Assembly (NCBI RefSeq): GCF_003334785.1 | Contig: NZ_QOWV01000013.1 | Direction: 5' to 3' (one strand) | DNA: 64,000 nt | From: Escherichia coli | GTDB lineage: Bacteria; Pseudomonadota; Gammaproteobacteria; Enterobacterales; Enterobacteriaceae | Part shown: positions 1,046-58,781 of the stretch, piece by piece | Layout: every line of letters begins with the position of its first letter | How positions within the stretch are numbered: the stretch's first letter is position 1 | Notes under the pieces: model-generated | Told to the model about the DNA's origin: nothing | The model's database searches: none | The model's input: only the letters and a program-made list of their open reading frames with translations | Program-made: the position numbers and the translations under genes

Positions 1046-1132
1046 CAGGCAGGATAAGGCGTTTACGCCGCATCCGGCATTTGAGCAGGATGCCTGATGC
1101 GACGCTGATAGCGTCTTATCAGGCCTACACTC
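1046..1132. repeat. REP/BIME palindromic units downstream of cpxA
   Basis: Imperfect palindromes gccgcatccggca and gcctgatgcgacgc...gtcttatcaggcctac typical of enterobacterial REP. Confidence 0.8.
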
Positions 1133-1961: not shown

Positions 1962-2945
1962 TTATTTCACCGTACCTAAAATTTCGATTTTCGCTGCTCT
2001 GGCTTTGACTTTACGTGACCAGATAGAGGTAAGAATTGGCACCAGAATCGAAGTCACAATGACCGCCGTCGCTACCAGCGAAGTTGCTGCCGGAGCCATC
2101 GGTTTAAACGCAGGCACCATTTCTGCAATCAGCACAGGTGTCGCTACCGCGGCCCCTGCGGAACTGGAAGCGGCAATTCCGGCAGTGCCATCGCCACCGC
2201 CAATCAATTTATCGGCGATAATCAACGGAATACCGGTCACGATAATTACTGCCACACCCAACAGGATCCCCAGCAAACCAGTCTGGGCAATCACAGTCAA
2301 ATCAATGGTATTGCCCAGCGCGAAGGCAAAGAATGGAATCAGCGTTTGCACCGCTTTGCTGAAAAATTCTCGCAATTCAGGGTCAAGGTTCCCCAGGGCA
2401 AAGCCCACCAGGAACGGTAATACTGCGCCGACGAAAACATGCGGTTCAAACGAGGCAATCCCGGCAGTGCCCAGAATAATCATCGTCATGAGCGGCCCGG
2501 ACTCCAACGACATCAACACAAATGCCCCAGCTTCTTCTTTTGTGCCGTACTGCTGCATGATGGAAGCGTAAAGTCCGCCATTGGTCATATCCATCGCCGC
2601 CACCAGCGCCAGCGTTGAAAGTCCGGCAAAGAATCCAACTTCAACACCATGTTCCGGAATAATACGCGAGGCAATTGCCGCAACCACCCACGCGACGGCA
2701 ATTTTAGTTACCACCAGCGTACCGGATTTACGCAGTACCGTTCCCGTCGCGCTTAATTTTATTGACGCCCCCATGCAAAAAAACCACACCGCCAGAATGG
2801 GCACCGTACCGGTAATCATCCCGTTGGTGAATGATCCAAAATATTTCCCCGCCCCCGGCGAGAAGGTGTGGCACAGTGCGCCAAGGAATAGCGGGACGAG
2901 CATCATCCCCCCCGGGATTTTCTCAATCGAGCGTTTTATCTGCAT
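1962..2945 (-). CDS. kdgT: 2-keto-3-deoxygluconate permease
   Basis: Track ORF 1962..2954; highly hydrophobic polytopic protein; start at [13 protein letters not shown] from recalled 327-aa KdgT. Confidence 0.9.
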
Positions 2946-9915: not shown

Positions 9916-10140
9916 CTGCCGGATGCGGCGCGAGCGCCTTATCCGGCCTACGGGTCGGCAACAGTTGTAGGCCTGATAAGACGCGACAGCGTCGCATCAG
10001 GCATTGATTGCCGGATGCGGCACAAGTGCCTTATCCGGCCTACAGGTCGGCAATAGTTGTAGGCCTGATAAGACGCGACAGCGTCGCATCAGGCATTGAT
10101 TGCCGGATGCGGCGCGAGCGCCTTATCCGGCCTACGGGTC
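9916..10140. repeat. BIME cluster (tandem REP units) between rhaA and rhaD
   Basis: Three near-identical copies of gccggatgcggcgcgagcgccttatccggcctac alternating with gtaggcctgataagacgcgacagcgtcgcatcaggca. Confidence 0.9.
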
Positions 10141-35174: not shown

Positions 35175-37211
35175 ATGGATACGCCACGTCCACAGTTATT
35201 AGATTTTCAATTTCATCAGAATAACGACAGTTTTACCCTACATTTTCAACAACGTCTTATTTTAACCCATAGCAAAGATAATCCTTGTTTATGGATTGGC
35301 TCAGGTATAGCGGATATCGATATGTTCCGCGGTAATTTCAGCATTAAAGATAAACTACAGGAGAAAATTGCGCTTACCGACGCCATCGTCAGCCAGTCAC
35401 CGGATGGTTGGTTAATTCATTTCAGCCGTGGTTCTGACATTAGCGCCACGCTGAATATCTCTGCCGACGATCAGGGGCGTTTATTGCTGGAACTACAAAA
35501 CGACAACCTTAACCACAACCGTATCTGGCTGCGCCTTGCCGCTCAACCAGAGGACCATATCTACGGCTGCGGCGAACAGTTTTCCTACTTCGATCTGCGT
35601 GGCAAACCGTTCCCGCTATGGACCAGTGAACAAGGCGTTGGTCGCAACAAACAAACCTATGTCACCTGGCAGGCCGACTGCAAAGAAAATGCGGGCGGCG
35701 ACTATTACTGGACTTTCTTCCCACAGCCTACGTTTGTCAGCACGCAGAAGTATTACTGCCATGTTGATAACAGTTGCTATATGAACTTCGACTTTAGTGC
35801 CCCGGAATACCATGAACTGGCGCTGTGGGAAGACAAAGCAACGCTGCGTTTTGAATGTGCTGACACATACATTTCCCTGCTGGAAAAATTAACCGCCCTG
35901 CTGGGACGCCAGCCAGAACTGCCCGACTGGATTTATGACGGAGTAACGCTCGGCATTCAGGGCGGGACGGAAGTGTGCCAGAAGAAACTGGACACCATGC
36001 GTAACGCGGGCGTGAAGGTCAACGGCATCTGGGCGCAGGACTGGTCCGGTATTCGTATGACCTCTTTTGGCAAACGCGTGATGTGGAACTGGAAGTGGAA
36101 CAGCGAAAACTACCCGCAACTGGATTCACGCATTAAGCAGTGGAATCAGGAGGGCGTGCAGTTCCTGGCCTATATCAACCCGTATGTTGCCAGCGATAAA
36201 GATCTCTGCGAAGAAGCGGCACAACACGGCTATCTGGCAAAAGATGCCTCTGGCGGTGACTATCTGGTGGAGTTTGGCGAGTTTTACGGCGGCGTTGTCG
36301 ATCTCACTAATCCAGAAGCCTACGCCTGGTTCAAGGAAGTGATCAAAAAGAACATGATTGAACTCGGCTGCGGCGGCTGGATGGCTGACTTCGGCGAGTA
36401 TCTGCCCACCGACACGTACCTGCATAACGGCGTCAGTGCCGAAATTATGCATAACGCCTGGCCTGCGCTGTGGGCGAAGTGTAACTACGAAGCCCTTGAA
36501 GAAACGGGCAAGCTCGGCGAGATCCTTTTCTTTATGCGCGCCGGTTCTACCGGTAGCCAGAAATACTCCACCATGATGTGGGCGGGCGACCAGAACGTCG
36601 ACTGGAGTCTCGACGATGGCCTGGCGTCGGTTGTCCCGGCGGCGCTGTCGCTGGCAATGACCGGACATGGCCTGCACCACAGCGACATTGGCGGTTACAC
36701 CACCCTGTTTGAGATGAAGCGCAGCAAAGAGCTGCTGCTGCGCTGGTGCGATTTCAGCGCCTTCACGCCGATGATGCGCACCCACGAAGGTAACCGTCCT
36801 GGCGACAACTGGCAGTTTGACGGCGACGCAGAAACCATCGCCCATTTCGCCCGTATGACCACCGTCTTCACCACCCTGAAACCTTACCTGAAAGAGGCCG
36901 TCGCGCTGAATGCGAAGTCCGGCCTGCCGGTTATGCGCCCGCTGTTCCTGCATTACGAAGACGATGCGCACACTTACACCCTGAAATATCAGTACCTGTT
37001 AGGTCGCGACATTCTGGTCGCTCCGGTGCATGAAGAAGGCCGTAGCGACTGGACGCTCTATCTGCCGGAGGATAACTGGGTCCACGCCTGGACGGGTGAA
37101 GCGTTCCGGGGCGGGGAAGTTACCGTTAATGCGCCCATCGGCAAGCCGCCGGTCTTTTATCGCGCCGATAGCGAATGGGCGGCACTGTTCGCGTCGTTAA
37201 AAAGCATCTAA
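35175..37211 (+). CDS. yihQ: GH31-family sulfoquinovosidase
   Basis: 678-aa ORF with GH31-like catalytic region (WAQDWSG, GGWMADFGEY). Confidence 0.9.
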   Translation: MDTPRPQLLDFQFHQNNDSFTLHFQQRLILTHSKDNPCLWIGSGIADIDMFRGNFSIKDKLQEKIALTDAIVSQSPDGWLIHFSRGSDISATLNISADDQGRLLLELQNDNLNHNRIWLRLAAQPEDHIYGCGEQFSYFDLRGKPFPLWTSEQGVGRNKQTYVTWQADCKENAGGDYYWTFFPQPTFVSTQKYYCHVDNSCYMNFDFSAPEYHELALWEDKATLRFECADTYISLLEKLTALLGRQPELPDWIYDGVTLGIQGGTEVCQKKLDTMRNAGVKVNGIWAQDWSGIRMTSFGKRVMWNWKWNSENYPQLDSRIKQWNQEGVQFLAYINPYVASDKDLCEEAAQHGYLAKDASGGDYLVEFGEFYGGVVDLTNPEAYAWFKEVIKKNMIELGCGGWMADFGEYLPTDTYLHNGVSAEIMHNAWPALWAKCNYEALEETGKLGEILFFMRAGSTGSQKYSTMMWAGDQNVDWSLDDGLASVVPAALSLAMTGHGLHHSDIGGYTTLFEMKRSKELLLRWCDFSAFTPMMRTHEGNRPGDNWQFDGDAETIAHFARMTTVFTTLKPYLKEAVALNAKSGLPVMRPLFLHYEDDAHTYTLKYQYLLGRDILVAPVHEEGRSDWTLYLPEDNWVHAWTGEAFRGGEVTVNAPIGKPPVFYRADSEWAALFASLKSI

Positions 37212-44004: not shown

Positions 44005-44169
44005 TGTTTAATCCTTTTGGTTTAAACCAGATGAAGCATCTTACGCTTACGCCAAAAAAGAAAGCAATTAACGGCGTATGACTTTGCAGATAATTGTGAC
44101 AAAGCTCTCTATTGACGTAACCACAGACTTATAAGGGAGATACTCGCATTGGTGTGCGCTCACGACAGG

Positions 44170-44204
44170 CAAAAAAAAACCTGCCATCGCTGGCAGGTTT
44201 TTTA
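44170..44204 (-). terminator. Intrinsic terminator of typA (bidirectional shape)
   Basis: A-run, cctgcca-tcgc-tggcagg hairpin, T-run, 17 nt after the typA stop. Confidence 0.75.
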
Positions 44205-44220
44205 TGACTAAAAAACGAAA

Positions 44221-46044
44221 TTAATCGTCTTTCGGTGCGCGGTTGGCGCGGCGACGATCGTTTTCCGTCAGGTGACGTTTACGAATACGGATAGAGGTCG
44301 GAGTCACTTCTACCAGTTCGTCATCATCGATGAACTCCAGAGCTTGTTCCAGAGTCATGCGGATAGGCGGAACCAGAACAACGGCTTCGTCAGTACCGGA
44401 AGCACGCATGTTGGTCAGTTTCTTACCGGTCAGGCAGTTTACAGTCAGGTCGTTAGAGCGGCTATGAATACCGATAATCTGACCTTCGTAAACTTCTGCA
44501 CCGTGACCGAGGAACAGCTTACCGCGATCCTGCAGACCGAACAGCGCGAACGCGACCGCTTTACCCTGACCGTTAGAGATCAGTACGCCGTTCTGACGCT
44601 GACCCACTTCACCCGGACGTACGTCGTCGTAGTGGCTGAAGGTGGAGTACAGCAGACCAGTACCGGAAGTCATGGTCATGAACTCAGAACGGAAGCCAAT
44701 CAGACCACGGCTTGGGATCACGTAGTCGAGACGTACGCGGCCTTTACCGTCTGGATTCATGTTTTTCAGGTCGCCTTTACGTTCGCCCAGCGCCTGCATT
44801 ACAGAACCCTGATGCTGTTCTTCAACGTCCAGAGTCACGTTTTCATACGGCTCTTGTTTACGACCGTCGATTTCACGGAAGATAACTTTCGGACGGGATA
44901 CCGCCAGTTCGAAACCTTCACGACGCATGTTTTCGATCAGAACAGACAGGTGCAGTTCGCCACGACCAGAAACGCGGAACGCATCGGCGTCTTCGGTTTC
45001 TTCTACGCGCAGCGCAACGTTGTGTACCAGTTCTTTGTTCAGACGATCCAGGATCTGACGAGACGTTACGAACTTACCTTCTTTACCGCAGAACGGCGAG
45101 GTGTTAACGCAGAAGAACATAGAAACGGTCGGCTCATCAACGGAGAGTGCCGGCAGCGCTTCAACGTTTTGCGTGTCGCAAACGGTGTCAGAAATGTTCA
45201 GTTCGCCAAGGCCCGTGATCGCAACGATATCGCCAGCTTCCGCCAGATCGGTTTCGATACGTTCCAGACCGAGGTGGCCCAGCACTTTACCGACTTTCGC
45301 GTTGCGGGTTTTGCCTTCGCTATCGATGATAGTGACCTGCTGGTTCGGCTTCACTTTACCGCGCTTGATGCGGCCAATGCCGATAACGCCAACATAGCTG
45401 TTGTAATCGAGCTGAGAAATCTGCATCTGGAACGGACCGTCAAGGTCAACGTCCGGCGCAGGAACGTGGTCAACAATCGCCTGGTACAGCGGGGTCATGT
45501 CTTCCGCCATATCTTCGTGGTCCAGACCCGCGATACCGTTCAGCGCAGAAGCGTAAACGATCGGGAAGTCCAGCTGCTCGTCGGTCGCGTCGAGGTTAAC
45601 GAACAGATCGAATACCTGATCCACAACCCAATCAGGACGCGCGCCAGGGCGGTCAACTTTGTTGATAACAACAATCGGCTTCAGGCCGTAAGCAAACGCT
45701 TTTTTGGTTACGAAGCGCGTTTGCGGCATCGGGCCGTCAAATGCGTCAACCACCAGCAGCACTGAGTCTACCATGGACATTACACGTTCAACTTCACCAC
45801 CGAAGTCGGCGTGCCCCGGGGTATCAACGATGTTGATACGGTAATCATTCCATTTGATAGCGGTGTTTTTCGCGAGGATGGTAATCCCACGCTCTTTCTC
45901 CAAATCGTTGGAGTCCATCACGCGCTCTTGGGTTTCGGCACGAGAGTCGAACGTACCGGATTGTTGGAGCAGCTTGTCTACCAGGGTGGTTTTACCATGG
46001 TCTACGTGCGCGATGATGGCGATATTACGCAATTTTTCGATCAC
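44221..46044 (-). CDS. typA: Ribosome-associated translational GTPase TypA/BipA
   Basis: 607-aa [29 protein letters not shown]; G-domain motifs ([21 protein letters not shown]). Confidence 0.95.
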
Positions 46045-46195
46045 AACTTTGCCTCAGGCATTAGAAATAGCGCGTTATTGTACACGGATTAATCGCACTA
46101 CAAAACAGGATCACAAACATCCTCCGCAAACAAGTATTGCAGAGTCCCTTTGTGATCGCTTTCACGGAGCATAAAAAGGGTTATCCAAAGGTCAT

Positions 46196-46287
46196 TGCAC
46201 CAACATGGTGCTTAATGTTTCCATTGAAGCACTATATTGGTGCAACATTCACATCGTGGTGCAGCCCTTTTGCACGATGGTGCGCAT
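46196..46287. promoter_or_regulatory. NtrC binding sites upstream of glnAp2
   Basis: Repeated TGCACCA-N-TGGTGC dyads: tgcaccaacatggtgct, gcactatattggtgcaa, tggtgcagcccttttgcacgatggtgcgca. Confidence 0.8.
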
Positions 46288-49172: not shown

Positions 49173-50582
49173 ATGCAACGAGGGATAGTCTGGGTAGTCG
49201 ATGACGATAGTTCCATCCGTTGGGTGCTTGAACGTGCGCTCGCTGGGGCAGGTTTAACCTGTACGACGTTTGAGAACGGCGCAGAAGTGCTGGAGGCGCT
49301 GGCGAGCAAAACGCCGGATGTGCTGCTTTCAGATATCCGTATGCCGGGAATGGACGGGCTGGCGCTGCTCAAGCAGATTAAACAGCGCCATCCAATGCTT
49401 CCGGTCATCATTATGACCGCACATTCCGATCTGGATGCTGCCGTCAGCGCCTATCAACAAGGGGCGTTTGATTATCTGCCCAAACCGTTTGATATCGACG
49501 AAGCAGTGGCGCTGGTTGAGCGCGCTATCAGTCATTACCAGGAACAGCAGCAGCCGCGTAATGTTCAGCTTAACGGCCCAACGACCGATATCATCGGCGA
49601 AGCGCCAGCCATGCAGGACGTGTTCCGTATTATCGGTCGGCTTTCGCGTTCTTCTATTAGCGTGCTGATTAACGGCGAATCCGGCACCGGTAAAGAACTG
49701 GTCGCTCATGCCCTGCATCGCCACAGTCCGCGCGCCAAAGCGCCGTTTATCGCGCTGAATATGGCAGCTATCCCAAAAGATTTGATCGAATCAGAACTGT
49801 TTGGCCACGAGAAAGGCGCGTTTACTGGCGCGAATACCATTCGTCAGGGGCGTTTTGAACAGGCCGATGGCGGTACATTATTCCTCGACGAAATTGGTGA
49901 TATGCCGCTGGATGTGCAGACGCGTTTGCTGCGCGTGCTGGCAGACGGTCAGTTTTACCGCGTTGGCGGCTATGCGCCGGTGAAAGTGGATGTGCGGATT
50001 ATCGCTGCCACTCACCAGAATCTCGAACAGCGAGTGCAGGAAGGTAAGTTCCGTGAGGATCTGTTCCACCGCCTGAACGTTATCCGCGTTCATCTGCCGC
50101 CGCTGCGCGAACGTCGGGAAGATATTCCCCGTCTGGCGCGCCATTTTTTACAGGTTGCCGCGCGCGAACTGGGCGTAGAAGCGAAGTTACTGCATCCGGA
50201 AACCGAAGCTGCTCTGACGCGTCTGGCGTGGCCAGGCAACGTGCGCCAGCTGGAAAACACCTGCCGCTGGCTAACGGTGATGGCCGCCGGGCAGGAAGTG
50301 TTGATTCAGGATTTGCCCGGCGAACTGTTTGAATCAACGGTTGCGGAGAGTACTTCGCAAATGCAACCGGACAGCTGGGCGACGCTTCTTGCGCAGTGGG
50401 CAGACAGAGCGCTGCGTTCCGGTCATCAAAATCTGCTTTCCGAAGCGCAGCCAGAGCTGGAGCGGACGTTACTGACGACCGCGTTGCGACATACGCAGGG
50501 GCATAAACAGGAAGCGGCGCGGCTACTCGGCTGGGGCCGCAACACCCTGACGCGTAAGTTAAAAGAGCTGGGGATGGAGTGA
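49173..50582 (+). CDS. glnG: Sigma-54-dependent response regulator NtrC
   Basis: Track ORF 49113..50582; start at [21 protein letters not shown] (469 aa); receiver, AAA+ ([14 protein letters not shown]) and Fis-type HTH. Confidence 0.95.
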
Positions 50583-50693
50583 TTCACAGCTTGTGTGTAA
50601 AGATTGATTATTGAGCGCAAATTGCTGGTATTTTACGCTTTACTGTTCCGATAAGTTCAGTATGATCTTGCCCGGAAAACGGGGAGAGTCATT

Positions 50694-50804
50694 ATGCTGG
50701 AATCAATAATTAATCTGGTATCGAGTGGCGCAGTTGACAGCCACACACCGCAAACTGCCGTTGCTGCCGTGCTGTGTGCCGCAATGATTGGGCTGTTTAG
50801 CTGA
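50694..50804 (+). CDS. yshB: Small hydrophobic protein YshB (36 aa)
   Basis: ATG after SD ggggagagtc; encodes MLESIINLVSSGAVDSHTPQTAVAAVLCAAMIGLFS; below ORF-track cut-off; matches recalled YshB between glnG and hemN. Confidence 0.65.
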   Translation: MLESIINLVSSGAVDSHTPQTAVAAVLCAAMIGLFS

Positions 50805-50817
50805 AGCTCGTTGTTTA

Positions 50818-50922
50818 TGCCGGATGCGGAGAAAGTCGTAGGCCTGATAAGACGCGACCAGCGCCGCATCAGGCATCATGCTCAGATGCCTGATGCGGCG
50901 TAAACGCCTTATCCGGCCTACA
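50818..50922. repeat. REP/BIME elements between yshB and hemN
   Basis: gccggatgcgg...gtaggcctgataagacgcgaccagcgccgcatcaggca...gcctgatgcggcgtaaacgccttatccggcctac. Confidence 0.85.
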
Positions 50923-51032
50923 AAAGCAATAATTTCAACAGGTTTTGTTGCCCAGCGCATCAGGCAATCTTGTTCTCAGCACATTGATGGCGCTTTCGTT
51001 TTCTACTTTGTAAACGAAGCGCCATTCACTAT

Positions 51033-52406
51033 TTAAATCACCCGAGAGAACTGCTGCATCCGCGCTTTCTGGCGCAGATAGGTATCAAAGCACATGCAAA
51101 TGTTGCGGATCAGCAAGCGACCTTTCGCCGTCACCTGTATTCCCTTCTCATCCACATCCACCAGCCCATCTTTTGCTAACGGGGCGAGCAGCTTGAGATC
51201 TTCCGCAAAGTAATCAGCGAAGTGCAAATCCCACTGTTTCTCAATAGGGGCGTAATCCAGACGGAAGTTGCAGATGAGCGACTTAATCACATCGCGGCGA
51301 ATACAGTCATCACGCGTTAGCGCAATACCACGCCACAGCGCATTGCCTTGTTCATCCACTTGCTGATAGTACTGCTTCAACTCTTTCTGGTTCTGCGCGT
51401 AGCAGTCGCCAATCATGCTGATGGCGGAAACGCCCATCCCCAGCAGATCGGTATCGCCCTGAGTGGTGTAGCCCTGGAAGTTACGATGCAGCACGCCTTC
51501 ACGCTGGGCCACCGCCAGCTCGTCATCCGGACGGGCAAAGTGATCCATACCGATAAACTGATAGCCCGATTGCGTCAGGAAGGCGATGGTTTCCTGCAGG
51601 ATATCGAGTTTTTGCTGCGGACTCGGCAGGTCAGCATCTTTGATTTTGCGCTGAGCAGCAAAAATGGTCGGCAGATGCGCGTAGTTAAAGACACTCAGAC
51701 GATCGGGGTTCAGCTCCGCCACACGTTTCAGGGTAAAGGCGAAACTCTCCGGCGTCTGTTTCGGCAGGCCGTAAATCAGGTCGATGTTGGTGGAGGTAAA
51801 ACCAATCTCACGCGCATGGTTAAGCAGTGCAAAGATGAACTCTTCATCCTGCTCGCGGTTAACCAGACGTTGCACTTCTTTGTTGAAGTCCTGCACGCCC
51901 ATGCTCAGGCGATTAAAGCCTTCGGCGCGTAAATGATCGAGTACATCCAGTTCGATTTCCCGCGGATCGACTTCGATCGAAATCTCCGCATCGGCATTGA
52001 ACTGGAAGTTTTCGCGCAGCAGCTTCATCAGGCGGCTGATTTGCGCTTTATTCAGATACGTCGGCGTTCCGCCGCCCCAGTGCAATTGGCTGACGTGACG
52101 CCCGGCGAACAGCGGTGCACGATGGACGATTTCTTGCTCCAGCGCGTCCAGATACTGATCGGCCTTGTGCTGCTGGCGAGTAACAATCTTATTGCAACCG
52201 CAGAAGTAACAAAGCTTATGGCAGAACGGGATATGTACGTAGAGAGATAATGGACGCTCAGGATAGCGCGCCACGGCTTGTAAAAACGCCTGTTCGCCGA
52301 AGTCTTCTGAAAACTCCAGCGCGGTCGGGTACGAGGTGTATCGTGGCCCGGAATAGTTATATTTCTGGATCAGGGCCAGATCCCAGTCGATTTGCTGTAC
52401 AGACAT
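51033..52406 (-). CDS. hemN: Oxygen-independent coproporphyrinogen III dehydrogenase (radical SAM)
   Basis: Track ORF 51033..52412; start at MSVQQIDWDLALIQKY (457 aa); radical-SAM CxxxCxxC (CHKLCYFCGC). Confidence 0.93.
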   Translation of the reverse strand: MSVQQIDWDLALIQKYNYSGPRYTSYPTALEFSEDFGEQAFLQAVARYPERPLSLYVHIPFCHKLCYFCGCNKIVTRQQHKADQYLDALEQEIVHRAPLFAGRHVSQLHWGGGTPTYLNKAQISRLMKLLRENFQFNADAEISIEVDPREIELDVLDHLRAEGFNRLSMGVQDFNKEVQRLVNREQDEEFIFALLNHAREIGFTSTNIDLIYGLPKQTPESFAFTLKRVAELNPDRLSVFNYAHLPTIFAAQRKIKDADLPSPQQKLDILQETIAFLTQSGYQFIGMDHFARPDDELAVAQREGVLHRNFQGYTTQGDTDLLGMGVSAISMIGDCYAQNQKELKQYYQQVDEQGNALWRGIALTRDDCIRRDVIKSLICNFRLDYAPIEKQWDLHFADYFAEDLKLLAPLAKDGLVDVDEKGIQVTAKGRLLIRNICMCFDTYLRQKARMQQFSRVI

Positions 52407-52594
52407 GCTCACTCCTTCCGATGGCGTCTCTGGCGGCTACGGCGTACCGGCGGATGCCCGTTTCGGGTCATCAGCCGGTTGCGCAGCCACTTTTGTCGCC
52501 GCGACAACCGCTGTAGTTTAACGAATAACCACACCAGATAACATATAACCGGAAGGGTTATCAGCAGAACGGGAAGGCCCACGGCGGCAATCCG

Positions 52595-53104
52595 TTAGTT
52601 GCCCCGCAGCAGACGCATCATGTCTTCTTGCTTCTCGTCTTCTTCCTCTTCTTCGTCATCGTCATAAGAGAGGCCGAGTTTCTGCATCAACTCATCAATA
52701 CGATCCAGTTTAGCATCCACCCAGGATTGCTCTTCGGCACTCAGGGTTTCGCCTGCTTCCAGACGTTCCAGCAGCGCATCCAGACGCTCATCCGTTTCCA
52801 GTAATTCCAACTCCGCCTGCGGTGAAAGCATAGGTTTCTCACTCTTCGGTTTGTGCTGTTTGGTGACTTTTTCAGTCACGCCCAATGGAATAGGGGTTTT
52901 ACTGCCAATACGTGGATCTTTTGGTGCGTTCTGGCCTTTGCTGCCTGACGTGGTGTTTCCGCCCGCTGCGCGGCTGCCCGGCGCATGACCACGACGTTTT
53001 TTCTGACGCTTGCGATCACGAGCTTCCTGATCCAGCTCCTCGCGTGTTTTTCGACGCGCTTTTGCATGACCTTTGCTGCGTGAGTTTGAAGATGATGGTT
53101 TCAT
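52595..53104 (-). CDS. yihI: Der GTPase-activating protein YihI
   Basis: Track ORF 52595..53167; start at [19 protein letters not shown] (169 aa); basic N-terminus, acidic C-terminus. Confidence 0.88.
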
Positions 53105-53170
53105 AATGGTTCGTCTTTTAGCCGTTTTATTCAGTATAGATTTGCGGCGGAATCTAACAGAAAGCAAGCA

Positions 53171-53415
53171 AAGAAAAAAGGCGACAGATTACTCTGTCGC
53201 CTTTTTTCCTGACTCATAACCCTTAACGGGTCTTACAATCCTTGCAGGCCGCCAACACACCCTGTTTTTCCTTTAGCCGGAACAATCCGTGTTGATTCCA
53301 TTTCCGTTTAATTACGTCTCCGGACGTTTGTCTTCCTGACAATCCTCTGTCTTCGCCTCCTGGCGCTCCTGACCCTCATCCTGAGTCATTGTTCCTGTTA
53401 GCGTCCTCGCTCTAT
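53171..53415 (-). ncRNA. csrC: CsrA-sequestering small RNA CsrC
   Basis: Minus strand matches recalled CsrC (atagagcgaggacgctaacaggaacaatgactcaggatgagggtcaggagcgccaggagg...), many GGA motifs, ends in hairpin ggcgacagagtaatctgtcgcc plus T-run. Confidence 0.85.
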
Positions 53416-53685
53416 GGGTGCTACTTTACGCCTTTGCTTTAAACAAACAATCAACCGCCATCAGTATTTGCACATTTTCAGAGTTTTATATAAAAGCAAT
53501 TCACTGATTTATATAGCTTATTTGACATGCATCGCAGAATTTTCTCTGCTATTTCGCATAAAGACTATCGGCAATGTCTCACAAAGCGTATGGCTTTTAC
53601 TTACAACGCTCACGCCGAAAAATCCGCCTTTTATTATGGTTCAGGTATAATCGCCACAAAGCTTTGACTGACGGAGACGACCGCT

Positions 53686-54318
53686 TTGACTAATTTGAAT
53701 TATCAACAGACGCATTTTGTGATGAGTGCGCCTGATATTCGCCACCTACCTTCCGATACCGGAATTGAAGTGGCTTTTGCAGGCCGTTCCAACGCAGGTA
53801 AATCCAGCGCGCTGAACACGCTGACTAACCAGAAAAGCCTGGCTCGTACCTCAAAAACCCCAGGGCGCACCCAGCTTATCAACCTGTTTGAAGTGGCTGA
53901 CGGCAAGCGTCTGGTTGACTTGCCTGGGTACGGTTATGCGGAAGTCCCGGAAGAGATGAAGCGCAAATGGCAGCGTGCGCTCGGCGAATACCTCGAAAAA
54001 CGTCAGAGCCTGCAAGGTCTGGTGGTGCTAATGGATATTCGCCATCCGCTGAAAGATTTGGATCAGCAGATGATTGAGTGGGCGGTAGACAGCAATATCG
54101 CCGTTCTGGTGCTGCTGACCAAAGCGGACAAACTGGCAAGCGGCGCACGTAAAGCGCAATTGAATATGGTGCGTGAAGCTGTACTGGCGTTTAACGGTGA
54201 TGTGCAGGTTGAAACGTTTTCTTCGTTGAAGAAACAAGGCGTGGACAAGCTGCGGCAGAAACTGGATACCTGGTTTAGCGAGATGCAGCCTGTAGAAGAA
54301 ACGCAGGACGGCGAATAA
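53686..54318 (+). CDS. engB: Ribosome biogenesis GTPase EngB/YihA
   Basis: 210-aa ORF from a TTG start; G-motifs ([20 protein letters not shown]). Confidence 0.92.
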
Positions 54319-54329
54319 TTTTCTTGCCT

Positions 54330-54425
54330 TAATGCTTGTGCCGGATGTGGCGTATCCGGCCCGTAAATTCAATAGATTACAATTCTACCGTTGGCCTGAT
54401 AAACATAGCGCATCAGGCATTACGG
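54330..54425. repeat. REP-like palindromic units between engB and spf
   Basis: gccggatgtggcgtatccggc and gcctgataaacatagcgcatcaggca. Confidence 0.7.
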
Positions 54426-54443
54426 ATCTTTTCTTTCGCCCAA

Positions 54444-54552
54444 TAAAAAACGCCCCAGTCATTACTGACTGGGGCGGCTAAAATATTCAGCCAAATCCGA
54501 TTACGTGAAGTAAAAGGTCTGAAAGATAGAACATCTTACCTCTGTACCCTAC
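54444..54552 (-). ncRNA. spf: Spot 42 small RNA
   Basis: Minus strand matches recalled Spot 42 (gtagggtacagaggtaagatgttctatctttcagacc...cccagtcagtaatgactggggcgttttttattg), ending in intrinsic terminator. Confidence 0.9.
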
Positions 54553-54698
54553 GCGACTAACTTTACTCTTTTTTGTTCAGTTCAGAAAGCACTTTTTGTA
54601 ATTTTTTTTCAGTTGTTGCATAGGAATTTCTAATAGCCATCACAAAACGTGACAGCTTATGTTGCTTACTTACGAAAAAAGGCATGTTCAGGCGAATC

Positions 54699-57485
54699 TT
54701 AGTGCGCCTGATCCCAGTTTTCGCCACTCCCCACTTCCACCAGCAACGGCACATCCAGACGGGTACAGTTTTCCATCAGTTGATGAATCTGCTTCGCGAC
54801 GGCATCAACATCATCTTTATGAACTTCAAATACCAGTTCATCGTGTACCTGCATGATCATACGTACACGCGGTTGCTCAGCCTGTAACCACGCATCAACG
54901 GCAATCATCGCCCGTTTGATAATGTCGGCGGCGGTTCCCTGCATTGGCGCGTTAATGGCTGCACGTTCAGCCGCTGCACGACGAGCACCATTGCTGGATT
55001 TGATATCCGGCAGATACAGACGGCGTCCGTCCAGCGTTTCAACGTAGCCCTGCTCTTTCGCCTGAGCACGGGTGCGTTCCATATACTCCAGCACGCCAGG
55101 GTAGCGTTCGAAGTAAAGGTCCATGTACTTCTGCGCTTCTTTACGTGGAATGTTCAATTGCCGCGCCAGACCGAAAGCACTCATGCCATAAATCAGACCA
55201 AAGTTGATCGCTTTCGCGCTACGGCGTTGCTCGCTGGTGACGGTTTCCAGTGGCAAACCAAACACTTCTGCCGCCGTTGCCCGGTGGATATCTTTTCCTT
55301 CCGCGAATGCGGTCAGCAAGCCTTTGTCACGCGAAAGATGCGCCATAATGCGCAGTTCAATCTGCGAGTAGTCCGCTGAGACAATCACATAATCCTCTGG
55401 CGCAATAAACGCCTGGCGGATACGACGACCTTCTTCGTTACGCACCGGAATGTTTTGCAGGTTAGGATCGGTTGACGATAAACGTCCCGTTGCAGTTACT
55501 GCCTGGTGATAAGAGGTATGCACACGCCCGGTTTTCGGGTTGATCATCAGCGGCAGCTTGTCGGTGTAGGTCGATTTCAGCTTCGCCAGACCACGATACT
55601 CCAGAATCACTTTTGGCAACGGATAGTCCAGCGCCAGTTCTTCCAGTACCTCTTCCGACGTTGACGGCGCGCCACCCGGCGTTTTCTTCAGCGGTTTAAT
55701 GCCCTGTTTTTCAAAGAGAATGGTTTGTAACTGCTTGGTGGAAGAAAGGTTAAATTCCTCACCTGCAATTTCATGCGCTTTCTTTTCCAGCTCAGCCAGA
55801 CGAAGGGTGAGCTCTTCAGAATGATTGTGCAGCACTTTCGGATCGATCTTCACACCGTTACGTTCAATGCGTGAAAGCACCGGCACCAGCGGCATTTCGA
55901 TATTCTCGAAGACGTTCAACGGCCCTTTGTGTTTTTGCAGATCCGGCCACATTTTCAGATGCAACTGCAAGGTGACATCTGCATCTTCGGCGGCGTAACG
56001 TCCGGCTTCTTCGAGGGCAATCTGGTTAAAGGTCAGTTGATTTTTGCCTTTACCAGCAATCTCTTCAAAAGTGATGGTTTTGTGCTTCAACCAACGTTCC
56101 GCGAGGCTGTCCATATCGTGACGCCCGGCAACGCTATTGAGAATGTAGGACTCCAGCATGGTATCAAACGCAATCCCACGCAGTTCAATGCCGTAGTTCG
56201 CCAGAATACCGCGATCGTATTTCAGGTTTTGCCCGACCTTCAGCGCCTTTTCATCTTCCAGCAGCGGTTTTAGCAACTCGAGTGCACGCTCGCGAGAGAT
56301 TTGATCGGGCGCATCAAGATAATCATGAGCAACCGGAATATATGCCGCTACGCCTGGCTCGATAGCAAAAGAAAGCCCGACCAGGTTAGCAGAGATGTTA
56401 TCAAGGCTGTCGGTTTCGGTATCAAATGCAAATACCGGCGCTTTTTCCAGCTTCGCAATCCACGCTTTCAGTGTTTCTTCATCAAGGATGGTGACGTAGT
56501 TGTCATAAGAAATCACCGTTGCCGTCACTTCTGGTGCTTCGTCTGCAACACTGGTTTCCTGTGGCTTCGCGGCTGGTTTTGCCCCTTTGGCCTGTAACCA
56601 TTTGCCCGCTTCGACATCAGCAGTCCAGCGTTTGAACTCATACTTTTTGAACAGCCCCAACAACTCTTCCGCTGCCGGTTGCTGCACTTCCAGTTGTTCA
56701 CAGGTCAGCTCCAGTTCAACGTCGGTTTTAATCGTCGCCAGCTGGTATGAGAGATAAGCAACTTCTTTGTTTTGCTCGAGCTTCGCTGCCATTGTTTTCG
56801 CGCCACGGAAGCTCAACCCAGCAATTTTTTCTGGCTCGGCATACAGCGTATCCAGTCCGCCAAGACCTTGCAGCAATGCCTGCGCGGTTTTTTCACCGAC
56901 GCCCGGTACGCCAGGAATGTTATCAGAGGAGTCACCCATCAGCGCCAGGAAATCGATGATCAGTTCTGGCGGCACGCCGTACTTATTCACCACCTCTTCC
57001 GGTCCGAGGATGGTATTCGTCATGGTATTGATAAGCGTAATATTTGGCGTCACCAGCTGCGCCATATCTTTATCGCCAGTGCTGATCAGCACCGGACGCC
57101 CGGCTTTTTCGGCTTCGCGCGCCAGAGTACCGATAACGTCGTCCGCTTCTACGCCAGAAACCGCCAGCAGCGGCAGTCCCATCGCTTTAACCATCGCGTG
57201 CAAGGGTTCGATTTGTGCACGCAGATCGTCCGGCATTGGCGGGCGATGTGATTTGTAATGTTCAAACAGTTCATCACGAAAGGTTTTTCCCTTGGCGTCA
57301 AAGACCACCGCTGCATGCGTCGGTTTATATTGCATGATCAGACTGCGCAGCATGTTGAGGACACCATACATCGCACCGGTCGGCTCGCCTGCGCTGTTAG
57401 TCAGCGGGGGAAACGCGTGATATGCGCGATAAAGATAAGATGAACCATCTACAAGGATAAGTGGATTTTGGGGGATCTGAACCAT
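54699..57485 (-). CDS. polA: DNA polymerase I
   Basis: 928-aa [28 protein letters not shown]...; Pol A family motifs. Confidence 0.97.
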
Positions 57486-57848
57486 AATGTCCGTGCCTGT
57501 TTATCAGATTATGGGTAAAGGATGCCACAGACAGGATGAAAACATGAGTTTTTCACCGCTTTTCGTGAAAATCTTTTGTAGATCTTCTGGATCGCTCGCA
57601 AATCGTCATGTGGATAACTTTGTGCATAAATTATTTACATCGCTTTTAATTTATTATCATGCTTTTTACAGCATGATGTTTGTCTTTGTTTTTCATGCAG
57701 TTAAAAATAAATCCATCCCTAATAATTGAGATAATGGGATTTTTTCTAATGTGGATAGATATGAATTATTTTTCTCCTTAAGGATCATCCGTTATTTGGG
57801 TCGTTTTCTGCTAAAATCTGCGCCTTGCGCTTCTTTAGCGCACTGTCT

Positions 57849-58781
57849 ATGGCTAACCTTTTGAATAAATTCATTATGACGAGAATACTCGCTGCGATAA
57901 CCCTTTTGCTGAGTATCGTATTGACCATTTTGGTCACTATTTTTTGTTCCGTCCCGATCATCATTGCCGGGATTGTAAAACTATTGCTACCTGTGCCAGT
58001 CATTTGGCGAAAGGTTTCGCGTTTTTGTGATTTTATGATGTATTGCTGGTGTGAAGGTCTGGCGGTATTACTGCATCTGAACCCACACCTTCAATGGGAA
58101 GTTCACGGGCTGGAAGGGTTAAGTAAGAAGAACTGGTATCTGCTTATTTGTAACCACCGTAGTTGGGCAGATATTGTCGTACTGTGCGTGCTGTTTCGTA
58201 AGCACATTCCGATGAATAAATATTTCCTCAAGCAACAGCTGGCCTGGGTGCCATTTCTTGGCCTGGCGTGCTGGTCGCTGGATATGCCGTTTATGAAGCG
58301 TTATTCCCGCGCTTATTTATTACGTCATCCGGAGCGACGTGGTAAAGATGTTGAAACCACTCGGCGTTCTTGTGAAAAGTTTCGCCTGCATCCCACCACC
58401 ATTGTCAATTTCGTTGAAGGCTCCCGTTTCACGCAAGAAAAACATCAGCAAACCCACTCCACTTTTCAAAACTTGTTGCCACCAAAGGCGGCAGGCATTG
58501 CGATGGCGCTAAATGTACTGGGTAAACAATTCGATAAACTGCTTAATGTTACGCTGTGTTATCCGGACAATAACCGTCAGCCGTTCTTCGATATGTTAAG
58601 CGGTAAACTGACGCGGATTGTCGTACATGTGGATTTACAGCCTATTGCCGATGAGTTACATGGCGACTACATCAATGACAAAAGCTTTAAGCGCCATTTT
58701 CAGCAATGGCTGAACTCATTGTGGCAGGAAAAAGACCGGCTTCTGACGTCTCTCATGTCATCACAGCGTCAGAATAAGTAA
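57849..58781 (+). CDS. yihG: Acyltransferase YihG (PlsC-like)
   Basis: Track ORF 57825..58781; start at [14 protein letters not shown] (310 aa); acyltransferase HxxxxD-like motif (NHRSWAD). Confidence 0.85.

Follow-up and report, generated by a model that had tools for sequence, protein, structure and literature searches.

A 64,000-nucleotide stretch of Escherichia coli DNA (contig NZ_QOWV01000013.1 of assembly GCF_003334785.1), here called the window, almost certainly carries between yihI and polA two classical regulatory RNA genes that have been characterised experimentally in this species: csrC, which encodes the CsrC RNA, and spf, which encodes Spot 42. The two genes flank engB (yihA). 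The interval singled out by the original prediction, 53105..54698, is the whole span from the start of yihI to the stop of polA, and engB therefore lies inside it. Both csrC and spf are already known and annotated at exactly these coordinates, northern, RNA-seq, footprinting and tagging data have been published for this same sequence, and finding them here adds nothing new.

The region is that of the laboratory strain. Positions 49951..58451 are, base for base, the reverse complement of E. coli K-12 MG1655 (NC_000913.3, 4046000-4054500), with 100% identity over 8.5 kb, and a window coordinate is obtained by subtracting the K-12 coordinate from 4104451. A megablast search with 52990..54800 finds the region in all 5,426 complete E. 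coli genomes, the K-12 MG1655 copy being 100% identical, and the csrC stretch and the spf stretch are each present in 5425 of the 5426. Comparisons across species were made with a set of 80 loci from different enterobacterial species, retrieved with EngB as the probe; 40 of these loci, together with three more distant ones, were scanned with Rfam.

Two covariance models place the genes. The CsrC model (Rfam RF00084) matches 53162..53415 on the minus strand over its full length (model positions 1-255); its 278.7 bits compare with a gathering threshold of 61 (E = 8e-89). The Spot 42 model (RF00021, Spot_42) matches 54444..54562, also on the minus strand and over its full length (1-115), with 122.8 bits against a threshold of 80 (E = 4.5e-25). 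The original prediction had put CsrC on the minus strand of the yihI-engB gap and Spot 42, with no strand given, in the engB-polA gap, and had named a covariance-model search as the check. Both models score far above threshold in those gaps, and the K-12 annotations of csrC and spf agree with them.

The CsrC gene

CsrC had been described as GGA-rich with a strong terminator, and both properties are borne out. The csrC gene contains 14 GGA in 246 nt, which is the maximum over the whole minus strand of the window, where the mean of the window is about 3 per 246 nt; composition-matched shuffles of csrC contain 7.8 +/- 2.2. When the 14 motifs are placed on the Rfam consensus structure, six fall in hairpin loops, five in single-stranded linkers and three in or at the edge of stems. 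The minimum free energy (MFE) of the csrC fold is -86.3 kcal/mol (z = -6.6 relative to shuffles). The intrinsic terminator, with its 18-pair stem followed by a T-run, is nearly invariant over 31 genera, with some compensatory pairs, and the alignment of 31 CsrC homologues contains compensatory changes in the GGA hairpins as well as in the terminator.

The densest GGA stretch on the plus strand, 35879..36124, has 12 GGA in 246 nt and is second only to CsrC; it has no above-threshold Rfam match. Matches to csrC number 5,489 in 5,425 E. coli genomes, two of them on plasmids, and it follows from these counts that a few dozen genomes carry a second copy.

Nothing separates this gene from the known csrC: the sequence, the position between yihA/engB and yihI, the strand, the GGA architecture, the terminator and the UvrY repeat discussed below are all identical, and it is the same gene. 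Passages in PMC4682653 and PMC5027483 describe the binding and sequestration of CsrA by CsrC, which is known for this exact sequence. The nearest likeness is CsrB, a larger RNA of the same clan (CL00106), which also titrates CsrA with GGA-loop hairpins and is also activated by UvrY through a far-upstream inverted repeat (PMC4682653). CsrB differs in being a longer RNA encoded at a separate locus, and its inverted repeat (TGTGAGAGATCTCTTACA) is more symmetrical and dependent on IHF; that of csrC is weaker and does not need IHF (PMC4682653).

Spot 42 and the SpfP peptide

The Spot 42 gene is equally complete. Its predicted fold has an MFE of -40.6 kcal/mol (z = -5.1), and the RNA ends in an intrinsic terminator of 11 pairs, eight of them G-C. 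Inside the RNA lies spfP, in which a GAGG Shine-Dalgarno sequence 5 nt before the AUG is followed by 15 codons, MFYLSDLLLHVIGFG, and a UGA. The peptide is intact in 79 of the 80 loci. SpfP is made, binds CRP and blocks the activation of some CRP-dependent promoters (PMC8916003). The same source describes repression of Spot 42 transcription by cAMP-CRP and the Hfq-dependent base pairing of the RNA with target mRNAs for secondary carbon use (PMC8916003).

Spot 42 is thus a dual-function RNA and not a purely non-coding one. The description of it as a regulatory RNA stands, while its treatment as non-coding only does not, since it holds this validated reading frame. The open reading frame (ORF) track supplied with the sequence misses spfP because 15 codons are too few for it, and not because Spot 42 is non-coding. 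Comparison with the known gene reveals no difference: the sequence, the position between polA and yihA/engB, the terminator and the embedded 15-codon frame are identical, which makes it the same gene.

The gap between engB and spf varies in length among genera. REP-type (repetitive extragenic palindromic) inverted repeats were considered for this gap and set aside, as the repeat finder gave none of at least 8 bp. By eye, two REP-like palindromes with 7-bp arms, GCCGGAT...ATCCGGC and GCCTGAT...ATCAGGC, can be read at 54340..54420, below the limits of the repeat finder.

Upstream regulatory sites

Upstream of csrC lies the inverted repeat TGTGAGACATTGCCGATA, which is the sequence footprinted for UvrY (PMC4682653). 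A TGTAAG half-site at 53600..53605 lies 16 bp upstream of it, with the spacing given in PMC4682653. A CRP-like site is found between this repeat and the gene (Table 1). Binding of CRP upstream of csrC in competition with UvrY is reported in work cited in a passage of PMC7591399, and the candidate site is consistent with such binding.

For the promoters themselves, the csrC hexamers would be TTGTTT and, after 16 nt, TAAAGT. The same -10 hexamer, TAAAGT at -13..-8, is common to csrC and spf, and all 53 loci compared have either TAAAGT or TAGAGT at spf. Further upstream of spf is a second CRP-like site, TGTGA-N6-TTAGA, centred at about -84.5. Its TGTGA half occurs in all 53 loci, at -92 in 47 of them, and the spacer between polA and spf measures 145-149 nt in 51 of the 53.

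Nothing substantive speaks against the picture drawn here, and only two observations on these sites qualify it. A consensus promoter scan found no sigma-70 consensus site in the region, and none that was full for csrC or spf; the hexamers of both promoters were assigned by eye only, because the scanner gave no such site. In addition, the two CRP-like sites score 8 of 10 core positions each, and there are about 29 such matches per strand in the 64-kb window.

Conservation of the two RNAs

Each of the 43 loci scanned (40 of 40, plus the three more distant ones) has Spot 42 above threshold and in the same place. CsrC is above threshold at the engB-yihI position in 36 of 40. In three Pantoea loci, and in the distant loci L083 and L084, this site has matches to the CsrC clan that stay below threshold. 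Rfam gives no CsrC-like match between engB and yihI in L040, and none in the distant locus L086, where the gap measures just 95 nt (2373..2468). Because of these two loci without a match and the sub-threshold scores in Pantoea, L083 and L084, CsrC at the engB-yihI position appears less universal than Spot 42. The polA 3' flank of L086 matches a 'soft rot Enterobacteriaceae' Rfam family. In the window, a permissive E-value search of 52300..54800 gave further Rfam families only as weak, terminator-driven matches.

Spurious reading frames in promoter DNA

The ORF track lists one frame in each gap, 53414..53650 on the plus strand and 54563..54754 on the minus strand. Both exist as listed and overlap the csrC and spf promoter regions, and the original prediction held them to be most likely artefacts. 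The comparative evidence agrees: they are open in 5 and 4 of the 80 loci, respectively, the first is without a frame-specific ratio of nonsynonymous to synonymous substitution rates (dN/dS), and they lack a family or annotation, with no NCBIfam match for either and no annotation of either in the reference or in the RefSeq records sampled. The TAA stop of each is part of a promoter hexamer of the -10 type.

A further candidate for a protein in this DNA is a shorter frame inside the minus-strand ORF, 25 codons from an ATG at 54640 to the TAA at 54563..54565, which might be translated as a small protein from polA read-through transcripts. The frame begins with ATG and is kept in 27 of 53 loci, and nothing that is clearly a terminator separates polA from spf. 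However, E. albertii and a second Escherichia lineage, the closest relatives, have lost it, as have Klebsiella, Raoultella and most Enterobacter loci; the residues in its middle are free to vary, and stops turn up. Its start codon forms part of the conserved CRP-like TGTGATG, and the -10 box supplies its stop. Given this loss from the nearest relatives, and since what is conserved in it consists of promoter elements, the frame was rejected as a small protein, and a coding role for it is very unlikely.

It is extremely unlikely that either or both of the listed ORFs are genuine small protein genes sharing their DNA with the promoters of the small RNAs. Both are open over at least 60 codons in K-12, a few dozen E. 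coli submissions to GenBank name the plus-strand one 'hypothetical protein', and parts of the minus-strand one, such as EKKLQKVL, look conserved in tblastn. However, the conserved pieces of the minus-strand ORF coincide with an A-tract, the TGTGA half-site and the -10 box, and EKKLQKVL is simply the A-rich block conserved in the promoter. The ORF shares its first 18 full codons with polA, out of frame, the 19th straddles the polA stop, and its own stop is part of the spf -10 box, whose first three bases form it. The exact sequence is absent from a collection of 15 billion proteins and has never been called as a protein.

The plus-strand ORF fares no better. The 5 loci counted above keep it open over at least 80% of its length, and stops break it in Citrobacter, Salmonella, Klebsiella and others. 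Its own stop TAA lies inside a TATAAT box (53646..53651, plus strand) that precedes the engB start by 34 nt. Compared among four Escherichia lineages, the ORF is less similar in amino acids (68-90% identity) than in nucleotides (82-96%). Within Escherichia, its dN/dS is 0.70 versus 0.60 and 1.00 in the other frames, with an engB control of 0.01; across 66 loci, engB has a dN/dS of 0.05. There is no frame-specific selection on this ORF. The name 'hypothetical protein' is attached to it on about 33 E. coli contigs and nowhere else.

That the two model matches are decayed or non-functional copies has a negligible probability: nothing was found in support, both matches span the whole model and have intact terminators and regulatory sites upstream, and the sequence is identical to that of the laboratory strain in which both RNAs were characterised.

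How the two RNAs would act

With the interval read as csrC and spf on either side of engB, a mechanism can be outlined in which CsrA binding, UvrY activation, CRP repression, base pairing and SpfP function are derived from the literature. Phosphorylated UvrY, bound at the inverted repeat about 160 bp upstream, would activate transcription of csrC on the minus strand, away from engB, to give an RNA of about 245 nt that would end at the strong intrinsic terminator 65 nt before yihI. The GGA motifs of this RNA, presented in short hairpin loops and linkers, would bind CsrA dimers and so titrate CsrA from its mRNA targets. The spf gene, whose minus-strand transcription converges with that of engB and which lies 146 nt downstream of polA, would yield a Spot 42 RNA of about 109 nt, subject to repression by cAMP-CRP. 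This RNA would base-pair with mRNAs for the use of secondary carbon sources and would additionally encode the 15-residue SpfP, which would bind CRP.

An unannotated reading frame between yihI and hemN

Beyond the noted interval, the 188-nt spacer between yihI and hemN, the gene for oxygen-independent coproporphyrinogen oxidase, contains an ORF of 57 codons that is absent from NC_000913.3, from the K-12 record annotated by the Prokaryotic Genome Annotation Pipeline (PGAP) and from RefSeq E. coli records. Its GTG start follows the yihI stop by 12 nt, and only 2 nt separate its TGA from the hemN ATG; the hemN ribosome-binding site, AAGGAG, falls within its last codons. The product has one strongly hydrophobic segment, LPVLLITLPVICYLVWLFV, with a mean Kyte-Doolittle hydropathy of 2.5, followed by a 36-residue tail with 15 arginines or lysines and one acidic residue. 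It is predicted to form one transmembrane helix with an arginine-rich tail.

Several properties point to translation. By tblastn the ORF is intact in 73 of the 80 loci; the start codon is kept in 78 of 79, the length is 57-60 codons in 71 of 78, and the stop lies 2-3 nt before the hemN ATG in 71 of 78. The dN/dS is 0.41 in the true frame, while the shifted frames give 1.1-1.3; variation is greatest at the third codon position, and the lengths of the aligned indels are divisible by three. When 1.84 billion representative proteins were searched with a profile, divergent relatives of 57-59 residues came up, with a common motif, CYLxWLxxKLxRLSxRK, and a C-terminal ...RKE. In the three relatives for which contigs were examined, the order is polA, engB, yihI, small ORF, hemN, with gaps of 0-7 nt to the flanking genes. 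The organisms named for this family include Klebsiella, Enterobacter, Lelliottia, Cedecea, Erwinia and Ewingella, and its members are labelled in their sources 'hypothetical protein' or, implausibly, 'High mobility group protein Z'. The ORF belongs to no Pfam or NCBIfam family, and searches of the literature and its supplements, including ribosome-profiling and gene-detection data, found nothing on it, with incomplete coverage.

A caveat to the coding reading is that the synonymous rate (dS) of the ORF is much lower, at 0.42, than in the neighbouring genes (1.07-1.37). A block within it, TGTTATCTGG.GTGGTTATTCGTTAAACTAC (52513..52543, minus strand), hardly varies between genera, synonymous sites included. 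From the low dS and this near-invariant block it follows that constraint at the nucleotide level contributes to the conservation. The block may be a promoter of hemN, suggested by the invariant TAAACT that it contains, or another regulatory element or regulator site within the ORF. A perfect palindrome, TTGTCGCGGCGACAA, was considered as a DNA site that might explain the conserved RLSRR motif and rejected, as it is present in just 5 of 78 loci.

On balance, the ORF, which keeps this position across Enterobacterales, is probably a genuinely translated, unannotated gene, and the most likely arrangement would be one in which translation is coupled from yihI through the small ORF to hemN.

Other features and automatic annotation

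The remaining features of the window with above-threshold Rfam matches are listed in Table 1 together with the genes and sites discussed above.

Table 1. Genes, RNAs, sites and reading frames in the window (positions in window coordinates unless a locus is named)
Feature	Position	Strand	Basis or remark
REP-derived naRNA4, four matches	1048..1125, 9970..10132, 50841..50918		Rfam above threshold
SECIS_3 selenocysteine insertion element	19211..19269	+	Rfam above threshold
STnc370	44168..44236	-	Rfam above threshold
ES222 small RNA	46126..46233	-	Rfam above threshold
hemN	51033..52406	-	NC_000913.3 annotation mapped to window
Probable small gene, 57 codons from GTG	52409..52582 (K-12 4051869..4052042)	-	In 188-nt yihI-hemN spacer
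yihI	52595..53104	-	NC_000913.3 annotation mapped to window
csrC (b4457), 246 nt	53170..53415	-	NC_000913.3 annotation mapped to window
CsrC intrinsic terminator	53171..53210	-	Terminator scan; A-run, 18-pair stem, T-run
Spurious ORF, 78 codons	53414..53650	+	Antisense to csrC promoter, UvrY repeat and CRP-like site
Probable csrC -10 hexamer TAAAGT	53423..53428	-	Read by eye; -13..-8 of annotated csrC +1
CRP-like site upstream of csrC	53518..53539		Consensus scoring, 8/10 core positions
UvrY-binding inverted repeat TGTGAGACATTGCCGATA	53566..53583	-	Exact match to published 18-mer; -168..-151 of annotated csrC +1
yihA/engB, GTPase gene between the two RNA genes	53686..54318	+	ORF track and NC_000913.3 annotation
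spf (b3864), 111 nt annotated	54442..54552	-	NC_000913.3 annotation mapped to window
Spot 42 intrinsic terminator	54451..54476	-	Terminator scan; 11 pairs, 8 G-C, then TTTTTT
spfP (b4837), 15 codons	54487..54534	-	NC_000913.3 annotation and translation
spf -10 hexamer TAAAGT	54560..54565	-	Read by eye; -13..-8
Spurious ORF, 63 codons	54563..54754	-	Starts in polA in another frame, crosses polA stop and spf promoter
Candidate CRP-like site upstream of spf	54626..54647		Consensus, 8/10 core positions; centre ~-84.5
polA	54699..57485	-	NC_000913.3 annotation mapped to window
5S rRNA	63817..63932	-	Rfam above threshold
Homologues of the yihI-hemN ORF	L083 3001..3177, L084 3001..3174, L086 3001..3177		Same locus position

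In the PGAP-annotated K-12 record there is no non-coding RNA feature for csrC, and a pseudogene described as 'hypothetical protein; frameshifted; internal stop' lies at 53223..53389 on the minus strand, inside csrC. A 'hypothetical protein' feature over csrC is present in all 30 of the RefSeq E. coli records that were sampled evenly across 5,425 genomes; that it is a frameshifted pseudogene was checked in one inspected record. For spf, the sampled RefSeq records mostly have no feature, and a few recent ones have an spfP or Spot 42 feature.

Significance

Automatic annotation still mishandles the csrC and spf loci. The practical value of the finding is as a check on the pipeline, in that the ORF track fills AT-rich promoter DNA with spurious frames. 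The small ORF between yihI and hemN is the one lead that is possibly worth an experiment.

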